Of a stretch of DNA of 25,018 nucleotides, positions 4,981-18,014 are shown in pieces. The translations under genes were made by a program, and so were the position numbers. Numbering within the stretch: the first letter of the stretch is position 1; every line of letters begins with the position of its first letter. The notes beneath the pieces are model-generated. The model was not told where the DNA came from, made no database searches, and was given only the letters and a program-made list of their open reading frames with translations. The DNA is from a virus: UHGV virus genome UHGV-1360762. One strand, given 5' to 3'.

Positions 4981-5159
4981 TTCTTCCCACTCCGCAACAT
5001 CGCATTCAGATACTTGTTTTGATTCACTGATGGAAAAGAATTTCTCTTAAGTAATTCCTCTCTCGATGGCATTGGCTTTACGCGTTGGCGAATAATCATT
5101 TCTGCCGGAAGAATGCCGGGATTGTATGCAAGTCCTCTCATGGTAAATTCCTCAGTCAT
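4977..5159 (-). CDS. Small hypothetical protein (about 54-60 aa)
   Basis: The 104-aa track ORF overlaps the upstream gene by 140 bp. Internal starts at 5159 (MTEEF) or 5141 (MRGLAY, preceded by GAGGAA) avoid the overlap. Confidence 0.4.
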
Positions 5160-5445
5160 TACTGATAGCGCCATAGCGTGAGCGGTAATTACGCAGGCGC
5201 GGGTCAATTTCAGGGAAGTGGGTATATGTGGCTTTGCGGAATGGTCGGATTGATGTCTGGTAAATTCGCTCGCGTTCTTCTTTCTCTGCAAGCCATATAC
5301 AGTGGCGAAATTCCTTTTCCTCTTTCGTTTCCTGCGGTAGCGACATTATCCGATCGTAGTTTTTTCTGAATTTATCCAGCACCTCCGATACGGAATTGCC
5401 GGAACAGCGGCGCGGGTCATCCGCACCATACAGAGGCGCTGGCAT
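5152..5445 (-). CDS. Hypothetical protein (97 aa)
   Basis: ORF in operon context; no recognised family. Confidence 0.5.
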
Positions 5446-5461
5446 GTTTTTCTCCTGTTGA

Positions 5462-6010
5462 TTATTTAGCTAACTTTTTCCAGATCGCTGAAACGTATTT
5501 GGCTTGGTGAATGGCATCATCAAGAGCGTTGTGGCGAGTTCCTTTGAATGGCATATCTCGCTTAGGGTCGAATCCTATTGCCTTCCCAAGTTCGACGATT
5601 GTTCTTACGTCGCGGTCATTCCACCACTGCCACGGAACTGGCTGCCCTGTCAGCGAATAACTGTTGCGGAGAATAACGCAGTCAAATGATGCTCCATTCC
5701 CCCAAACCTGAACGAATTTGTGGTTAGCGTTCTTTATGATGAATTCAGATAACCATGAAAGAGCCGTTGAAAGCTCCTGAGTGTTGCTGGTTAGCGATTT
5801 CCTGGCTTCTTCACTCTGTTCCAGCCACCATAAAATCGTTGAAGCGTCAGGACGCGCTCGATATCGCATTGATGATTCAAGCGAGATATTTACCGAGAAC
5901 TCTTCTCCTGTTTCTCCGGTATTCGGGTCAAAGAATACCGCCCCAATAGAAATAACTGGCGCGTATGGCCCGTTGCCCATTGTTTCAAGGTCAACCATCA
6001 AGTGATTCAT
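5462..6010 (-). CDS. DEDDh-type (DnaQ-like) 3'-5' exonuclease (182 aa)
   Basis: N-terminal DLETMG (Exo I motif) and C-terminal HNALDDA (Exo III motif with catalytic His) in a protein of typical DnaQ-like size. Confidence 0.7.
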   Translation of the reverse strand: MNHLMVDLETMGNGPYAPVISIGAVFFDPNTGETGEEFSVNISLESSMRYRARPDASTILWWLEQSEEARKSLTSNTQELSTALSWLSEFIIKNANHKFVQVWGNGASFDCVILRNSYSLTGQPVPWQWWNDRDVRTIVELGKAIGFDPKRDMPFKGTRHNALDDAIHQAKYVSAIWKKLAK

Positions 6011-6018
6011 GTAAGTCC

Positions 6019-6498
6019 TTAAATTGCGTGAATAGCGTGACGAGGGAAGGGGAGAGTTACTGGCTCCTCGTCTGGGTAGATAGGTTTGTTATGTTTGTGC
6101 CACTCGACATGACATGACTTGCAGAGCCACATCACATCGGTTGGTTTGCTGTAGTCGCAGTGGTGCGCCTGTGGTTTACATTCTGATCCGCAGCACTCAC
6201 ATTGTGGTGGTCGGATTAGCTTACCGTCGCGCAAAAAATTACCCACGATGATGTGGGCTTTTCTTTTCCATGGGTTGCTCTGAATGAACCGCTTTTTGGC
6301 TGCGTTACACCGTTCTCTGCCGCGTTCCGATGATTGATATTCTCTCCTTGCTGATACTCGATGTGGCAATCCCGCGCGCTCTTTGTCATATTCAGCCAGG
6401 CAAGCCCGGCAAGCGGCAGTTAATCCATCTCTGGATGCTCTTCTGATTTGAAAGTCCCTTTCTTCCTTCTGTTGATGGCATCTTGAGCAGATTTTCAT
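6019..6498 (-). CDS. Zinc-finger protein with C-terminal HNH-like motif (159 aa)
   Basis: Paired Cys clusters (CSRCH...CRAC; CECCGSEC...HHCDYSKP...WLCKSCHVEWH) consistent with a zinc ribbon plus HNH-like nuclease fold. Confidence 0.5.
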   Translation of the reverse strand: MKICSRCHQQKEERDFQIRRASRDGLTAACRACLAEYDKERAGLPHRVSARREYQSSERGRERCNAAKKRFIQSNPWKRKAHIIVGNFLRDGKLIRPPQCECCGSECKPQAHHCDYSKPTDVMWLCKSCHVEWHKHNKPIYPDEEPVTLPFPRHAIHAI

Positions 6499-6507
6499 AT
6501 TCAGCTC

Positions 6508-6981
6508 CTAGAACGGAATATCCGAATCGTCGAAGTTCATAGGTGGTTCGCTGTGATTTCCATGCTGCTGAGGTTGCTGTCTTTGTTGATGACCATTATT
6601 TCGCTGAGGTGAAGACTGTTCATTGCCTCCTTGCTTGCCACCAAGCATTTGCATGGTTCCACCAACGCCCACGATGACTTCGGTAGTGAACCGATCCTGT
6701 CCGCTTTGATCCTGCCATTTTCTTGTCCGCAACTTGCCTTCAAGATAAACCTCAGAGCCTTTTCGCAGATATTCGCTGGCAATTTCTGCCAGTTTCCCGC
6801 TCATTACCACGCGGTGCCACTCCGTCTGCTCCTTTTGCTCTCCAGTTTGCTTATCACGCCATTGTTCTGACGTAGCAACTGTAAGGTTTGCAAATGCCGT
6901 TCCTGATGGTGAATATCTGATTTCTGGATCATGCCCAAGGCGACCAATAATGATCACCTTATTTACGCCTCTGCTTGCCAT
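6508..6981 (-). CDS. ssb: Single-stranded DNA-binding protein
   Basis: OB-fold N-terminus ([17 protein letters not shown]...), Gly/Gln-rich linker and the canonical acidic tail DDSDIPF. Confidence 0.92.
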
Positions 6982-7689
6982 TTATGCCGCCTGTTTTAGT
7001 TCGTTAACTCTGATGTTCATTACCTGAACGCATTTAGCCTGCGCTTCCTCGTTGCCAGCCATTAATTGCCAGTCACGCTGATAACGCTCGATGAGTTTTT
7101 TCTTGTCAGTTTCTGTTGACGCATAATCGCTGAAGTCTTTCAGGATTTGTTCGCAGTCAACCGATGGAGATTTCTGGTTGGTATTTTCTGGTGATGGTTT
7201 GTTATCTGATGCTGGGATTGCCCAGCCCGGCAGCGATGGAGGGAGCCAGTAAAATCCTGTTCCATCCTTGAGTTTTGCCCTGTGCCATCCCTGCTTTTTG
7301 TCGAGAGATGTTTGTGCGAAACCTTCCTCAAGGTTATACAGATACCGACCGATTCCCCACTGAACGGCAGCACGCTTCATTGCACCGGAACGACCACCTT
7401 TGACGGCTTCTACCTGCGTGTTTTCAGCAGCATCCCATTTGGTTACCCATTCGGAATCAATCTTGATTGATATGCCGCATTCAACTCCGCCGTTGTTGGG
7501 AATATCGCGGTATTCATTGCGCCATCCTGCTTTGCCGCAAACATCGTCCAGGCGTTTCATGATTGCCCTGTTCGTGACATAAGCCAGCACCATAGCCCAC
7601 ACCTTTCCATCGCGTGTTTTACCGCTTTGCTGTATTCGCCATTCGATATCTTCAGGGCTGAATGGCTCATCGAATTTGTTCAAATCCAT
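6982..7689 (-). CDS. Single-strand annealing protein: Rad52/Sak-like N-terminal domain with P22 Erf-like C-terminal tail
   Basis: C-terminus DFSDYASTETDKKKLIERYQRDWQLMAGNEEAQAKCVQVMNIRVNELK matches recalled P22 Erf C-terminus. N-terminal half (FSPEDIEW..., GGRSGAMKRAAVQWGIGRYLY) looks Rad52-like rather than Erf-like. Confidence 0.8.
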   Translation of the reverse strand: MDLNKFDEPFSPEDIEWRIQQSGKTRDGKVWAMVLAYVTNRAIMKRLDDVCGKAGWRNEYRDIPNNGGVECGISIKIDSEWVTKWDAAENTQVEAVKGGRSGAMKRAAVQWGIGRYLYNLEEGFAQTSLDKKQGWHRAKLKDGTGFYWLPPSLPGWAIPASDNKPSPENTNQKSPSVDCEQILKDFSDYASTETDKKKLIERYQRDWQLMAGNEEAQAKCVQVMNIRVNELKQAA

Positions 7690-7697
7690 AATTCACC

Positions 7698-7886
7698 TCA
7701 GAATGGTAATTCGGATGGGGAGGAAAGAAATTCGCGCTCATTCATGCGCTCTCTTTGTGCTTGCCATAAACAAAGTTGTTTCTTTGATTTATCTCCCGCT
7801 TTACGCCAGTAACGAGCCTCAGCAATGTGATACTCTCTTTTTAATCGACTTAACTCTGGGGTTTTCGCCAGTTCTACCGTAATCAT
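7698..7886 (-). CDS. Small hypothetical protein (62 aa from MITVELAK...)
   Basis: GGAGG 5 nt upstream of the second ATG; lies between the annealing protein gene and kil. Confidence 0.45.
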   Translation of the reverse strand: MITVELAKTPELSRLKREYHIAEARYWRKAGDKSKKQLCLWQAQRERMNEREFLSSPSELPF

Positions 7887-7996
7887 TTTGACCTCCATTT
7901 CCTGTAGGCTTCGACAGCCTCACGAAACATCTTTTCATCGCCAATAAAAGTGGCGATAGCGAATTTAGTCTGGATAGCCATAAGTGTTTTATCCAT
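7883..7996 (-). CDS. kil: Kil (host killing / FtsZ inhibitor), lambda-like
   Basis: MDKTLMAIQTKFAIATFIGDEKMFREAVEAYRKW matches recalled lambda Kil N-terminus. Confidence 0.8.
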   Translation of the reverse strand: MDKTLMAIQTKFAIATFIGDEKMFREAVEAYRKWRSK

Positions 7997-8129
7997 TTTT
8001 TGGAACTCCTGGCTGATTAAGTACGTCGATGAGTCGTTTCCATCCGTCACGTAATTTACGGGTGATTCGTTCAAGTAAAGATTCGGAAGGGCAGCCAGCA
8101 ACAGGCCACCCTGCAATGGCATATTGCAT
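7989..8129 (-). CDS. cIII: cIII (FtsH inhibitor stabilising cII), lambda-like
   Basis: MQYAIAGWPVAGCPSESLLERITRKLRDGWKRLIDVLNQPGVPKNG is near-identical to recalled lambda cIII. Confidence 0.88.
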   Translation of the reverse strand: MQYAIAGWPVAGCPSESLLERITRKLRDGWKRLIDVLNQPGVPKNG

Positions 8130-8190
8130 GGTGTACTCCTTATTTATACATAACGAAAAACGCCTCGAGTGAAGCGTTATTGGTATGCAT

Positions 8191-8218
8191 ATAAAAAGGC
8201 CCTCACACTGGAGGGCAA
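8191..8218 (-). terminator. tL1-like rho-independent terminator between ral and cIII
   Basis: GCCCTC ACACTG GAGGGC stem-loop at 8199-8217; on the minus strand it is followed by CTTTTTATATG. Confidence 0.6.
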
Positions 8219-9414: not shown

Positions 9415-9500
9415 GCTTAAATTTAAGATCTCTTTAATTAATGGTCAAGAGTATTTTTGAAGAAAACTTAAATTTTCTTTCGTAACTTAAGTTTGGCTTT
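9415..9500 (-). promoter_or_regulatory. OL operators and pL promoter (P22-type operator half-sites)
   Basis: ATTTAAGATCTCTTTAAT at 9421-9438 resembles P22 18-bp operators; minus-strand TTGACC (rc of 9443-9448) with downstream TAAAT-type -10; sits between the cI terminator and nutL. Confidence 0.6.
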
Positions 9501-9515
9501 GATTTTTAAAGGAAA

Positions 9516-9541
9516 TAAAAAAAGGGGCGAATGCCCCCTTA
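9516..9541 (-). terminator. Rho-independent terminator immediately 3' of the repressor gene
   Basis: AAAAAAAGGGGCGAATGCCCCCTT; on the minus strand GGGGGCATTCGCCCC followed by TTTTTTT. Confidence 0.75.
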
Positions 9542-10189
9542 TGGAAGGTTTGCTAGTTTTGCATCGACAACTACGCCGATGATTTTGCAGTTTCCGTTGA
9601 TCTCGATCATCGGATATTGTGGGTTAAGTGGTTTTAGAAACTTCCTGCCTGCATCAATAACTAACTTCTTGAAAGTTGCCTCGTTTTCTCCTTCGAGCTT
9701 TGCAACTACCAGTTTCCCGTTACGCGGCTCTACTTCAGGATCGACGAGTATTATCATTCCTTCAGGGATACTGAGACCGGCCGGAGCCGTCATTGAGTCT
9801 CCCTTCACGTCCAACCAAAACGAATCTTCTGAACAGTCTACGGTTGTATCGTACCAGTTATCTATTGCACGCTTATGATATGGTTCTACAGCTTCCATCC
9901 AGCATCCTGCGCTCACCCAGCTAATCAGAGGGTATGACCCTCTTGGATCATGCCTACTGTGATAGGCAATGTTTGAAAGACTTTCCTCTCCTTTCATCAG
10001 ATAGTCAGGGGAACACTTCAACGCATTAGCCAGGGCGAGAAGATTCTCTCCATTTGGCTCTGTCTCAGAGCGTTCCCACTGAGATATGGCAACATTAGAC
10101 ACGCCGACCATCTTTCCAAGTGCGGCCTGCCTGATCTTGAGTTCTTTTCTCCGAGCGCGAATGCGCTCTCCCATCAATTGAGTTTTCAT
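9539..10189 (-). CDS. cI: Prophage repressor, P22 C2-type (HTH N-domain, LexA-like autocleavage C-domain)
   Basis: 216-aa protein near-identical to recalled P22 C2 (…TQLMGERIRARRK.LKIRQAALGKMVGVSNVAISQWERSETEPNGENLLAL…). Confidence 0.95.
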   Translation of the reverse strand: MKTQLMGERIRARRKELKIRQAALGKMVGVSNVAISQWERSETEPNGENLLALANALKCSPDYLMKGEESLSNIAYHSRHDPRGSYPLISWVSAGCWMEAVEPYHKRAIDNWYDTTVDCSEDSFWLDVKGDSMTAPAGLSIPEGMIILVDPEVEPRNGKLVVAKLEGENEATFKKLVIDAGRKFLKPLNPQYPMIEINGNCKIIGVVVDAKLANLP

Positions 10190-13755: not shown

Positions 13756-14208
13756 GTGACAATGAAGCAAATATACATGCTTCGCAACGAAGCAATCAGA
13801 AACAACGCCATAGACGCAATACTCTCACTTCCGATCGACGACAAGTCACCTCACGAAGTCCACGTTAAAGAACCCAAGCGGAGCAATCCTCAAAACCGCC
13901 TTATGTGGGCGTTATTGCAGGACGTATCGCGTCAGGTGCTTTGGCATGGAAAGAGACTTGCGCCGGAGGACTGGAAAGATCTGTTCACTGCCCTGTGGCT
14001 TAAGACCAAAAAACTGGAGCAACGAAGTGCGCCTGGTATCGACGGTGGCGTTGTCATGCTTGGCGTGCGTACCAGCAAAATGCGAAAGGCCAACATGACT
14101 GAGCTTATCGAAATCATGTTCTGGTTCGGCTCAGAGCGCAACGTGCGGTGGAGTGATGACTCCCGGCGAGAGTATGAATGGTCACAACGAAAAGGGGAGG
14201 CTGCATGA
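13756..14208 (+). CDS. ninB: NinB-like recombination protein
   Basis: Collinear similarity to recalled lambda NinB (…QNR.LWA.L.DVSRQV.WHG…, SDD(E)SR.EYEW..R.GE.AA C-terminus). Confidence 0.8.
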   Translation: MTMKQIYMLRNEAIRNNAIDAILSLPIDDKSPHEVHVKEPKRSNPQNRLMWALLQDVSRQVLWHGKRLAPEDWKDLFTALWLKTKKLEQRSAPGIDGGVVMLGVRTSKMRKANMTELIEIMFWFGSERNVRWSDDSRREYEWSQRKGEAA

Positions 14209-14732
14209 CTATCAAATCAAATACGCCAGCACACGACAAGGACTGCTGGCAAACGCCGCTTTGGCTTTTTGATGCACTGGATATTGAGTTTGGATTCTGG
14301 CTGGATTCGGCAGCGAGCGACAAAAATGCTCTATGTGCTCACTGGCTAACTGAGGCCGACGACGCGCTCAATTCTGAGTGGGTAAGCCACGGTGCAATCT
14401 GGAATAACCCACCGTACAGCAATATCAGGCCGTGGGTGGAAAAAGCCGCTGAGCAGTGCATGCAACAGCGACAGACGGTAGTGATGCTTGTGCCAGAGGA
14501 TATGTCAGTAGGATGGTTCAGCAAGGCTCTGGAGAGCGTTGACGAAGTTCGCATCATCACTGATGGACGGATTAATTTTATCGAACCATCGACAGGGCTG
14601 GAGAAGAAGGGGAACAGCAAAGGTTCCATGCTGCTGATTTGGCGACCGTTCATCAGTCCTCGACGGATGTTTACTACCGTATCCAAAGCGGCATTGATGG
14701 CGATCGGGCAGGGCGTAAGGAGGGCGGCATGA
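14205..14732 (+). CDS. Phage DNA N6-adenine methyltransferase (Dam-like)
   Basis: Catalytic motif IV NPPY (WNNPPYSN); ATG at 14205 preceded by AAAGGGGAGG and overlapping the ninB stop; occupies the lambda ninC slot. Confidence 0.75.
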
Positions 14733-15309: not shown

Positions 15310-15478
15310 TCCATCCCAATCCCTTCAATACCAGAAAGAAAGCGTCGAGCGGGCTTTAACGTGCGCTAACTGCGGTCAGAAGCTGCATGTGCTGGAAGTT
15401 CACGTGTGTGAGCACTGCTGTGCAGAACTGATGAGCGATCCGAATAGCTCAATGTACGAGGAAGAAGACGATGAGTGA
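15302..15478 (+). CDS. ninF: NinF
   Basis: [51 protein letters not shown]... matches recalled lambda NinF. Confidence 0.85.
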   Translation: MLSPSQSLQYQKESVERALTCANCGQKLHVLEVHVCEHCCAELMSDPNSSMYEEEDDE

Positions 15479-15980
15479 TGTTAAAGAAAAAGATATCCCC
15501 GGCTTTGAGGGTATATATAAAGTAACTGAAAATGGAGACATCATTTCATGCCGTAAATCAAAAAAATTATCTCATGGCATTAAACCAGGAGGATATGCAT
15601 TTGTCGGTCTGTATCCAGGTGGCGGGAAAAGACCATCATATAAAATGGTTCACAGAATTGTTGCAGAAGTATTTATTGATAACCCAGATGGCAAACCGGA
15701 AGTTAATCACAAGGATGGAAATAAACTTAATAATAAAGTTGAAAATCTTGAGTGGGTAACGCGAACAGAAAATGCGAAACATGGATTTGATTCCGGATTG
15801 CTTGTTCATGGGTTTAATCATCACTTCTGCAAACTAACGCCAGAACAAGTGAAATCAATATATAAATCAAAAGGCAAATACAGAGATATAGCCAAAGAAT
15901 TTGGTGTTTGTGCGCAGACAGTGTGCAACATAAAAAACAAATCAGCGTACCGACGTTTTTTGGAGGGGATTGATGTTTAG
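15471..15980 (+). CDS. HNH homing endonuclease (NUMOD4-like N-terminus plus HNH_3)
   Basis: GFEGIYKVTENGDIIS (NUMOD4-like) and VHRIVAEVFIDNPDGKPEVNHKDGNKLNNKVENLEWVTRTENAKH (HNH_3-like); coding sequence visibly more AT-rich than neighbours. Confidence 0.8.
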   Translation: MSDVKEKDIPGFEGIYKVTENGDIISCRKSKKLSHGIKPGGYAFVGLYPGGGKRPSYKMVHRIVAEVFIDNPDGKPEVNHKDGNKLNNKVENLEWVTRTENAKHGFDSGLLVHGFNHHFCKLTPEQVKSIYKSKGKYRDIAKEFGVCAQTVCNIKNKSAYRRFLEGIDV

Positions 15981-16248
15981 AAGCAAAAAATGGCTTCAGG
16001 CAGTCAGGGATATTGAATTTTGCGTTCTTTGCGGAAGATACGGAGTTCAGGCCGCTCACAGAAATGAAGGGAAGGGGGTTGGGATTAAAGTAGATGATTG
16101 CCTTACTGCTGCGCTATGTGTTGATTGTCATTCAAGAATTGATAATGGGAGAGATATGAGCAGGGAAGAGCGAAGGGCTGAAATGGATCGGGCCATTGTG
16201 CTTACCCTTAAAAAATTGGTTAACAATGGGAGGGTGTTTGTCCAATGA
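15970..16248 (+). CDS. YbcO-like (DUF1364) zinc-binding nin-region protein
   Basis: Cys/His pattern C..CG…AH…ALC..CH..ID and location directly upstream of rusA, as in DLP12 ybcO-rusA. Confidence 0.6.
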   Translation: MMFRSKKWLQAVRDIEFCVLCGRYGVQAAHRNEGKGVGIKVDDCLTAALCVDCHSRIDNGRDMSREERRAEMDRAIVLTLKKLVNNGRVFVQ

Positions 16249-16607
16249 ACGAATATCAGTTTGTGCTTCCATACCCGCCGTCGCTGAACACCTACTGGCG
16301 AAGACGGGGAAGCCAATATTACATAAGCGATAAAGGCCAGAAATACCGAAAAGACGTTCAGCAAATCATCCACCAACTCAAGTTAGACATTTTCACCAAA
16401 TCACGACTCCGCATCAAAGTAATCGCAGACGTTCCAGACTCCCGCCGCCGCGACCTCGATAACATCCTGAAAGGTTTACTCGACTCACTTATCCACGCCG
16501 GATTTGCGGAAGACGACGAGCAATTCGATGACATTCGCGTAATTCGTGGTGTGAAAGTACCAGGTGGAAGGCTTGGAATAAAAATCACCGAACTGGAGAA
16601 CGCATGA
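16245..16607 (+). CDS. rusA: RusA Holliday junction resolvase
   Basis: 120-aa protein with LPYPPS.N.YWRRRG and DVPDSRRRDLDNILKGLLDSL matching the RusA family. Confidence 0.9.
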   Translation: MNEYQFVLPYPPSLNTYWRRRGSQYYISDKGQKYRKDVQQIIHQLKLDIFTKSRLRIKVIADVPDSRRRDLDNILKGLLDSLIHAGFAEDDEQFDDIRVIRGVKVPGGRLGIKITELENA

Positions 16608-17501: not shown

Positions 17502-18014
17502 ATGAAAGAAATAAAATTAACGCCAGAAATGGTGCTTTCTGTTGTTGATTACAATCCATCATCAGGCGACTTTCACTGGAGATGGAGGCAGGGGAGAGAG
17601 AGGACCACTTTGACATGGAACTCTCGTTTTGCTTTCAAGAAATGCTCATCAATAAATTCTGATGGGTATTTAATGATTATGATTAATGGTAAAGCATACC
17701 CTGCTCACAGACTGGCATGGTTGATTGTTTATGGCACCATGCCCGATGGTTTTATTGATCACATCAACAGGGTAAGAACAGATAACCGGATATCAAATCT
17801 TCGTCTTGTCACTCATTCCGAAAATATGCAGAACAGGAAAATTCAGAAGAATAATAAATCTGGATACCGTGGCGTGTCTTGGGATGCTAAGTACGGGAAA
17901 TGGAGAGCAAGAATTAATGCGTCTGGAAAGTGTATTAACCTTGGATACCATGACACTGCCGAACTTGCCGCTGCGGCTTTTGAGGCCGCCAGAATTAAAT
18001 ATCATACCGTTTAA
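17502..18014 (+). CDS. HNH endonuclease with C-terminal AP2 DNA-binding domain (homing-endonuclease-like)
   Basis: HNH_3-like core (…AHRLAWLIVYGTMPDGFIDHINRVRTDNRISNLRLVTHSENMQN) followed by AP2-like YRGVSWDAKYGKWRARINASGKCINLGYHDTAELAAAAFEAA; AT-rich coding sequence. Confidence 0.8.
   Translation: MKEIKLTPEMVLSVVDYNPSSGDFHWRWRQGRERTTLTWNSRFAFKKCSSINSDGYLMIMINGKAYPAHRLAWLIVYGTMPDGFIDHINRVRTDNRISNLRLVTHSENMQNRKIQKNNKSGYRGVSWDAKYGKWRARINASGKCINLGYHDTAELAAAAFEAARIKYHTV

Follow-up and report, generated by a model that had tools for sequence, protein, structure and literature searches.

A Rad52/Sak-Erf Chimeric Annealing Gene, abc2, and Two Optional Nuclease Cassettes in the Early-Left Operon of a P22-Like Phage Genome

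Introduction

The recombination (Rec) modules of lambdoid phages were catalogued by Zheng, Casjens, Davidson, Amundsen, and Smith (Genome Res 2025), whose list covers single-strand annealing protein (SAP) types, the single-stranded DNA-binding protein SSB-1, DnaQ-like 3'-5' nucleases, HNH nucleases, and Abc2 (PMC12315714). In that catalogue the HNH nucleases are entered with caution about their mobility, only three phages carry two genes of the same function in one module, and none of these three carries an HNH and DnaQ pair. In the model established for phage P22, Abc2 binds RecC and hijacks RecBCD, which leads to single strands and to the loading of the phage recombinase (PMC9836394). Domain swaps in Erf proteins were described in 2008 in the genome paper of phage epsilon34 (gene 36), where the nuclease encoded by gene 34 was called "unusual" (PMC2629481). 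We describe here the corresponding genes of the UHGV virus genome UHGV-1360762, a stretch of 25,018 nucleotides (hereafter the window) that derives from a P22-like temperate phage or prophage of E. coli of the HK620/CUS-3/Sf6 type. They encode an annealing protein, an SSB, a putative HNH-type endonuclease, and a DEDDh exonuclease (together positions 5,462 to 7,689), followed by Abc2.

A first-pass annotation, made from the DNA letters alone, had placed the first four open reading frames (ORFs) here, and all four are indeed found at those positions, on the minus strand. It had also regarded the module as unusual and had been puzzled by the lack of a partner nuclease. Neither view survived. Of 5,426 complete E. 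coli genomes, 392 carry the annealing gene, which also occurs in phages Sf6, epsilon34, ES18, ST64T, L, BTP1, mEp235, and others, and the puzzle is resolved by the abc2 gene (5152-5445), which the annotation had overlooked. The finding is already known in its essentials, the domain swap having been published in 2008 (PMC2629481) and the DnaQ and HNH nucleases of Rec modules in 2025 (PMC12315714). What is possibly new is confined to the counts for the two cassettes, the hot spot of HNH genes around ssb, and a scar that buries the tip of SSB.

We conclude with high confidence that these genes make up the homologous-recombination module in the early-left (pL) region of a temperate, P22-like E. 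coli phage that packages its DNA by headful, that Abc2 explains the missing phage exonuclease, and that the two nuclease genes are optional cassettes. This confidence applies to those three statements; the role of the exonuclease stands outside it and is weighed separately below.

Annealing Protein and Abc2

The annealing protein (235 aa, 6982-7689, minus strand) is a chimera of a Rad52/Sak-type core and an Erf-type tail, as the first-pass annotation had proposed. Residues 4-136 (7282..7680, minus strand) form the predicted ssDNA-annealing core of the Rad52/Sak type; they score 91.9 bits with Pfam PF04098 (Rad52_Rad22), for which the cutoff is 20.3. Sak of Lactococcus phage ul36 shares 58.7% identity with the N-terminal 150 residues (residues 6-148; 95% of the query). 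No match to the ERF family (PF04404) was obtained at E≤1 with either the whole protein or residues 1-137, whereas P22 Erf scores 157 bits, and the P22 Erf core gave no tblastn match in the window. The profile assignment of the N-terminal domain, which the annotation had suggested as a check, thus goes to Rad52_Rad22 rather than to ERF. The C-terminal domain (residues 157-235; 6985..7221, minus strand) is 63% identical to residues 134-205 of P22 Erf (E=2e-30). The ERF Pfam domain of P22 Erf itself comprises residues 5-146, and the stretch matching the tail is called outside that domain.

The Erf-type tail defines a narrow family, with 17 representatives among 1.84 billion proteins, and all those that could be typed have either a Rad52 or an ERF core. 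Searching with the tail alone yielded little more than truncated fragments, and the architectures reported here come from tblastn on phage records and a scan of the full library. The tail is confined to enterobacterial phages. In phages of Klebsiella, Erwinia, and Morganella it is joined to genuine ERF cores, whereas the Sak-type cores of Lactococcus and Vibrio phages match the core query only and are devoid of it. It follows that the tail belongs by origin to ERF proteins and that a Sak core was grafted onto it. One protein considered as a third core type (P0186) turned out to be a frameshifted Sak core. The Sak-core/Erf-tail chimera also occurs in Sf6, epsilon34, ES18, ST64T, ST104, L, BTP1, and mEp235; most P22-like phages have this chimera, and not the protein of P22 itself, as their "Erf".

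An AlphaFold2 (AF2) model predicts the tail to be a three-helix bundle, with a pLDDT of 77-88 in the helices, and the model finds no fold match in the PDB better than E=0.8. That search thus gave no resemblance of the tail to the Red-beta C-terminal domain or to any known partner-binding domain. The idea that the tail serves as an adaptor for Abc2 is not supported either, since it sits on ERF cores (in the Klebsiella, Erwinia, and Morganella phages) with no Pfam-detectable Abc2 downstream, and since HK620 couples Abc2 with Sak4, which has no such tail. The title of Murphy 2000 (cited in PMC9836394), according to which Abc2 works with lambda Bet, counts against an adaptor role as well.

The ORF next downstream of the exonuclease gene encodes a full-length anti-RecBCD protein, Abc2 (5152-5445, minus strand), which matches Pfam PF11043 (Anti-RecBCD_p2) with 212.7 bits and is 94% identical to P22 Abc2. 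By tblastn of the window, no lambda Exo, Bet, Gam, RecE-type protein, Abc1, Arf, ERF core, or Sak4 was detected, and none of the ORFs between 2818 and 7898 belongs to a lambda Exo/RecE-type Pfam or PHROG family. The 5'-3' exonuclease that usually accompanies an annealing protein is thus lacking, as the first-pass annotation had noted. The accepted reason is that such an enzyme is not needed in the module because Abc2 co-opts host RecBCD for resection, and Abc2 would accordingly be its functional stand-in. The mechanism is established for P22, and we infer it for the window.

By this mechanism Abc2 would bind RecC and turn RecBCD into a Chi-independent resection machine, which would supply the 5'-3' degradation in place of lambda Exo or RecE. 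The annealing protein, through its predicted ring-forming core, would then act with SSB to pair the 3' single strands, leading to circularisation and recombination of the phage DNA, and NinB and RusA, encoded elsewhere in the window, could act at later steps. The first-pass annotation had offered two ways out of the missing-nuclease problem. One, reliance on host nucleases, is borne out by the adjacent abc2 gene and the hijacking of RecBCD in P22 (PMC9836394); for the other, in which the exonuclease degrades signalling molecules, nothing was found in support.

Optional Nuclease Cassettes

About 80 IMG/VR loci were fetched for each of three anchors and typed by tblastn with a reference panel. 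In the set anchored on the annealing protein, SSB and Abc2 are present in all 80 loci, the exonuclease in 27, the HNH gene in 19, both nucleases in 3, and neither in 37, these loci being the closest relatives and not phylogenetically independent, and the three anchor sets overlapping one another. With identical modules collapsed, no positive association between the HNH gene and the exonuclease was seen (odds ratio 0.28, p=0.06). Across the 5,426 complete E. coli genomes, 392 carry the annealing gene, 154 the exonuclease, and 98 a full HNH gene. The junctions of HNH presence and absence are precise. Between the stop codon that precedes it and the ribosome-binding site of abc2, the exonuclease gene is cleanly present or absent, as a single-gene indel. 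The HNH and exonuclease genes are independent single-gene cassettes lying between ssb and abc2.

The described phages show the same variation. Both nucleases are present in Bas106, the HNH gene alone in Sf6 and IME10, and the exonuclease alone in mEp235 and epsilon34. ST64T has no nuclease and carries Abc1 in place of SSB, ES18 has a different, T7 gp7.7-like HNH protein, and HK620 combines Sak4 with SSB and Abc2. From their presence and absence in these loci and phages, it follows that neither nuclease is an obligate partner of the annealing protein. The core that is always present consists of the annealing protein, SSB (with Abc1 in its slot in some relatives), and Abc2. We also considered SSB as an obligate partner of the Sak core, but ST64T pairs the same annealing protein with Abc1 in the ssb slot.

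Phage Bas106 and dozens of E. coli chromosomes carry the full five-gene order (annealing protein, SSB, HNH, exonuclease, Abc2), with a nucleotide identity of 98%. The combination of HNH and DnaQ genes in such a module is not listed by Zheng et al. (PMC12315714), yet it is already public in the GenBank entry of Bas106 and in those chromosomes. The pattern of presence and absence argues for regarding the DnaQ-type and HNH genes, recently counted as "Rec module nucleases", as optional cassettes, which affects both the classification of modules and the mining of such modules for recombineering tools.

HNH Gene and the SSB Tip

The ORF at 6019..6498 (159 aa, minus strand), recorded by the first-pass annotation as Zn-finger/HNH-like, is a free-standing, putative HNH-type (I-KsaII-like) endonuclease gene, an optional cassette at the 3' end of ssb. 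Its product matches no Pfam (HNH included), NCBIfam, or PDB sequence; it falls in PHROG 2340, annotated "endonuclease". Residues C100, C103, H112, H113, D115, H130, and H134 are invariant across 50 homologues, and the AF2 model has a pLDDT of 92.5. Residues 2-134 are about 35% identical to I-KsaII, a putative homing endonuclease encoded by a group I intron in polA of Twort-like Staphylococcus phages. Around the HNH gene of the window, Rfam detects no group I intron. Members of the family are found sporadically, in 559 phage records (Vibrio, Staphylococcus, Erwinia, Bacillus, and others) that differ in host and in gene context without evident relation.

HNH genes accumulate at the flanks of ssb, where this type of module has at least four different ones. 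Besides the gene of the window, there is HNH-2, 48% identical to it and located at exactly the same site (loci L271-L274, 4001-4468), a Pfam HNH_3 gene between the annealing gene and ssb (locus L272, 3060-3527), and the T7 gp7.7-like HNH gene of ES18 (gp47; locus L257, 4218-4739). In the distant Vibrio phage D60 (locus L259, 1872-2926), a homologue 53% identical to the HNH protein of the window comes directly after an ssb with a disrupted tip (...DFDDDRS-stop). The conserved tip codons of ssb may therefore be the target of this HNH family.

Most likely, the HNH gene is a selfish element of the homing-endonuclease type that resides at the 3' end of ssb, and not the nuclease of the module. That it encodes instead a genuine recombination nuclease, which would for example make breaks or resolve intermediates for the annealing protein, is in our view improbable. 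The gene is tightly packed and probably co-transcribed with the module, Zheng et al. judge the HNH protein of ES18 a likely legitimate module member (PMC12315714), and PHROG matches over the N-terminal zinc ribbon reach endonuclease VII-like and Lar-like families. However, only 19 of the 80 loci have it, at least four unrelated or diverged HNH genes take the same spot, and its relatives either are encoded in introns or lie dispersed among unrelated genes in phages that are themselves unrelated. Moreover, its loss appears to leave an in-frame scar in an otherwise 97.5%-identical ssb, and the window already encodes the RusA resolvase.

Several side observations concern the calling of this gene in databases. 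At 100%-identical matches in RefSeq E. coli genomes, the 159-aa ORF carries no annotated feature (hits H244-H246), and it is present but unannotated in phage IME10 (locus L004); annotation-based surveys therefore undercount it. Many 157-aa proteins named SSB share a 90%-identity cluster with the 159-aa HNH protein, and several database proteins (P0204, P0207, P0217, and P0246) join an SSB or exonuclease Pfam domain to HNH-like sequence. Such SSB/HNH/exonuclease composites are probably fusion or frameshift gene calls across the packed region. Within the HNH ORF a terminator-like hairpin followed by a T-run was noted at 6241-6258 on both strands, as a consensus match only.

The ssb gene (6508-6981, minus strand) encodes a bacterial-type SSB of 157 aa (Pfam SSB PF00436, 131.9 bits; TIGR00621, 181 bits), here designated the type A allele. 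The protein ends in ...NFDDSDIPF-stop, with tip and stop codon at 6508-6519, so that the tip is free and the canonical DDSDIPF tail reported by the first-pass annotation is present. In each of the 39 HNH-positive loci the SSB terminates at ...DIPF; in all 138 HNH-negative loci it runs on for 15 residues, APVTLPFPRHAIHAI (two of them read ...DTPF). The DNA that encodes the extension is also the end of the HNH genes, the last 14 codons of the HNH gene of the window (6022-6063) being identical to the 3' extension of the HNH-less alleles. The sharing is confined to these last 14-15 codons, and the shared residues are disordered in the AF2 model of the HNH protein. The endings were compared in the window (6508-6519 and 6019-6063) and in loci L003 (2923-3429), L258 (2412-2918), and L272 (3524-4470).

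Two diverged ssb lineages, about 75% identical in nucleotide sequence, are present among the loci. A type-B ssb whose body is 97.5% identical to that of mEp235 has a normal stop codon where HNH-2 follows, and other phage SSBs terminate at IPF. In view of these two facts, the most plausible origin of the extension is the deletion of an HNH gene, which would have left an in-frame scar; the converse, that the extended ssb is a pristine empty site, was rejected on the same grounds. We had further considered the HNH segment KHNKPIYPDEE as a degenerate copy of the ssb tip; this was withdrawn, the segment being conserved in HNH homologues from unrelated contexts.

Scarred ssb genes, in which the tip is buried and whose products are 168-171 aa long, make up roughly three quarters of the natural copies, and the allele is viable, since the plaque-forming phages epsilon34 and mEp235 carry it. 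In E. coli SSB, the free carboxylate of the C-terminal Phe is required for partner binding. If that rule holds for the phage proteins, the scar should blunt the contacts of SSB with its partners. No description of the scar was found in the literature, for which our search coverage was incomplete. The HNH-linked C-terminus may matter where phage SSBs serve as cognate annealing partners, most natural alleles having their tip buried under 15 extra residues.

Role of the DexA-Like Exonuclease

The gene at 5462..6010 (minus strand) encodes a DEDDh exonuclease of 182 aa from the T4 DexA/Rv2179c-like family, as the first-pass annotation had recognised. The protein matches Pfam PF16473 with 247.8 bits over the full profile (1-177 of 177), and residues D7, E9, D110, H160, and D165 are invariant in an alignment with T4 DexA and seven homologues. 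T4 DexA is also the closest solved relative (PDB 8KEL, E=1.5e-13; 30% identity). From its family membership, the enzyme is expected to degrade DNA in the 3'-5' direction. The family comprises 3,812 clusters and is widespread in Enterobacterales prophages; at least partial copies of the DEDDh domain occur in 4,189 of the 5,426 complete E. coli genomes, with up to 8 per genome. The same domain was also seen as the C-terminus of an "exonuclease" of about 823 aa located between dicB/ydfD and xis-int in other lambdoid prophages (L248 3728-5545, L249 2799-5270).

T4 DexA is a 3'-5' DNA exonuclease that contributes to intron homing driven by double-strand breaks and to double-strand-break repair (PMC12153337). 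The exonuclease gene of the window is probably co-transcribed with the recombination genes from pL, with no internal promoter, which is a pointer to its role. We tentatively favour, as the leading single reading, a dispensable accessory enzyme that would trim 3' ends or flaps of recombination and replication intermediates in the manner of T4 DexA. Behind it we rank, in this order, a nuclease acting against phages or between them, an enzyme degrading signalling nucleotides or RNA, and an obligate partner of the annealing protein; what remains we leave to other roles.

Several points weigh against our account of the module, and in particular against a helper role for this enzyme, beginning with the related and overlapping loci on which the cassette counts depend. 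The biochemical activities, and with them the role of the exonuclease, are inferred, whereas the gene identities, catalytic residues, cassette behaviour, and junctions are read directly from the DNA. 3'-5' exonucleases "curiously, usually inhibit homologous recombination" (PMC12315714), and a helper role is therefore not obvious. Homologues 58-62% identical to the exonuclease lie in early regions that have no annealing protein, SSB, or Abc2, which argues against a role specific to recombination. In Salmonella and Klebsiella, the gene order around them is cI-YfdP-DUF2303-DndB-exo-xis-int (loci L260-L267, gene at 5001-5570), and a homologue in Serratia lies in a P2/186-like context, Fil-TerB-exo-Dam-GPA (locus L268, 5001-5579). 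Finally, EcD ("HREX"), a DexA homologue of E. coli, is reported to cleave DNA containing 5-hydroxymethylcytosine (5hmC) and not unmodified DNA, and to protect cells from T4 when carried on a plasmid (PMC12153337).

The EcD precedent is also the main argument for the rival that fares best, namely, that the exonuclease is a phage-versus-phage or defence nuclease directed at the modified (e.g., 5hmC) DNA of T-even-like competitors and merely rides in the early-left operon. This reading we regard as unlikely but worth keeping in view. The gene does behave as an optional, moron-like cassette, its relatives occur in non-recombination contexts beside DndB-like and Dam genes, and the family is very common in Enterobacterales prophages (the 3,812 clusters mentioned above). 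However, EcD is a different protein: its cloning primers give MIDTET...TIPETY, distinct from the exonuclease of the window, and none of the 120 best clusters, each with at least 57% identity to that exonuclease, contains it. The gene in the window also has no promoter of its own and would probably be silent in the lysogen, the state in which a defence function would have to act, and PADLOC returned only marginal, generic DEDDh matches. A search for EcD itself (HAK9828821.1) with the primer sequences gave a single match to a viral contig and a single match to a species-representative genome, both due to chance.

The homologues of DexA are most prevalent in Escherichia, and the EcD paper makes no mention of prophages (PMC12153337). 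The standalone exonuclease homologues found here all lie in early operons of phages or prophages, so that the "bacterial defence" of the EcD type may itself be phage-borne. This bears on how the family is seen, since its members have been presented as a bacterial anti-T4 defence and the present locus shows that the family is prophage-borne. If the enzyme were no recombination enzyme but a nuclease that senses modification, carried by temperate phages to destroy the DNA of hypermodified competitors, the "HREX defence" would in fact be a prophage cassette on the move, found now in recombination modules and now in other early operons.

The degradation of signalling nucleotides (cyclic oligonucleotides or nanoRNAs) to counter abortive infection appears very unlikely. 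DEDDh enzymes include oligoribonucleases, the Pfam family is named after the exoribonuclease Rv2179c, and REXO2 is reported as the nearest structural neighbour of DexA (PMC12153337). On the other hand, DexA, the sole characterised close phage relative, is a DNA exonuclease; the protein of the window matches no known anti-CBASS or anti-Thoeris family, its PADLOC matches being marginal; and we found no literature that links the family to signalling-nucleotide degradation. Least probable of all is a dedicated partner of the Rad52-type annealing protein in a new, 3'-5' resection-based annealing pathway. The gene is packed tightly inside the module, in the same operon, and Zheng et al. count the DnaQ-type enzyme as a Rec-module nuclease (PMC12315714). 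Its distribution, however, already contradicts this reading: 53 of the 80 loci lack it although their annealing protein is the same or nearly so, and it is missing from Sf6, ST64T, and ES18 as well. In addition, Abc2 is there in 80 of 80 to give resection through RecBCD, and close family members occur where there is no annealing protein at all.

Genomic Setting

The recombination genes lie within the leftward early operon, and every ORF discussed above as part of the module is on the minus strand. The integrase gene is found at 293-1363, and a cI-like repressor gene (9539-10189) is followed by cro and cII. Rightward of cII are O and a DnaB-type helicase, the nin region with NinB, Dam, RusA, and Q, and then the terminase and portal genes. 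Directly downstream of the cI-like repressor gene, a promoter scan placed a pL-like promoter at 9420..9448 (minus strand), from which the module is probably transcribed; the scan gave 2 sites against 6.6 expected from shuffled sequences. No credible promoter was found by the scan inside the module, including any that would express a cassette in the lysogen. tL-like terminators were found at 8159-8216. The Rfam family Lambda_thermo, the thermoregulator RNA element of lambda cIII, was matched at 8084-8142 (minus strand) with 84.2 bits and is the sole Rfam family above its gathering score in the window.

Between the promoter and the annealing gene, a small ORF of 66 aa (7698..7898, minus strand), of the HK620 hkaM/ST64T Orf-66 type, belongs to PHROG 1723, "recombinase" (E=1.8e-32). 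It occupies the position of P22 arf; it has no match to Pfam Phage_Arf, and P22 Arf has no tblastn match in the window. ORFs of the hkaM type precede Sak4 in HK620 and the Sak-core annealing protein in ST64T, ES18, and epsilon34.

On the plus strand, the nin region encodes NinB, an Orf-type recombination mediator (13756-14208), a Dam-type methyltransferase (14178-14732), and RusA, a Holliday-junction resolvase (16245-16607). With NinB and RusA present, the later steps of recombination are therefore phage-encoded too. Two further HNH genes lie in the nin and late-regulatory region, also on the plus strand, one with NUMOD4 and HNH_3 domains (15471-15980) and one with HNH_3 and AP2 domains (17502-18014), which brings the total for the window to three.

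Comparison with Known Systems

The closest described systems are the Rec modules of Shigella phage Sf6 (genes 28-25), Salmonella phage epsilon34 (genes 36-33), coliphage mEp235, and Escherichia phage CurroJimenez_Bas106, which have the same gene order at 96-98% nucleotide identity. Sf6 is without the exonuclease, and epsilon34 and mEp235 are without the HNH gene, whereas the window has both. The P22 operon (arf-erf-abc1-abc2) occupies the same position; Abc2 is 94% and the C-terminal domain of Erf 63% identical, and the two phages would share a dependence on Abc2-modified RecBCD. They differ in that the annealing core of the window is of the Rad52/Sak type and not ERF, that the abc1 slot holds ssb, the HNH gene, and the exonuclease, and that arf is replaced by the hkaM-type ORF.

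Among more distant relatives, Sak of ul36 belongs to the same Pfam family as the core of the window, to which it is 58.7% identical, and the Sak cores of Lactococcus and Vibrio phages do not match the Erf-tail query. T4 DexA (PDB 8KEL/8KEN) and EcD belong to the DEDDh family of the exonuclease, in which the five catalytic residues of DexA are conserved; at 182 aa against 227 aa and 30% identity, the enzyme of the window is without the extra loops of DexA. I-KsaII is intron-encoded in polA, whereas its relative in the window is free-standing after ssb, with no intron. Lambda Red (exo-bet-gam) holds the same operon position and serves the same biological task as the module of the window. The window, however, has none of the three Red proteins, and in it RecBCD would be co-opted by Abc2 rather than blocked by Gam, with resection carried out by the host.

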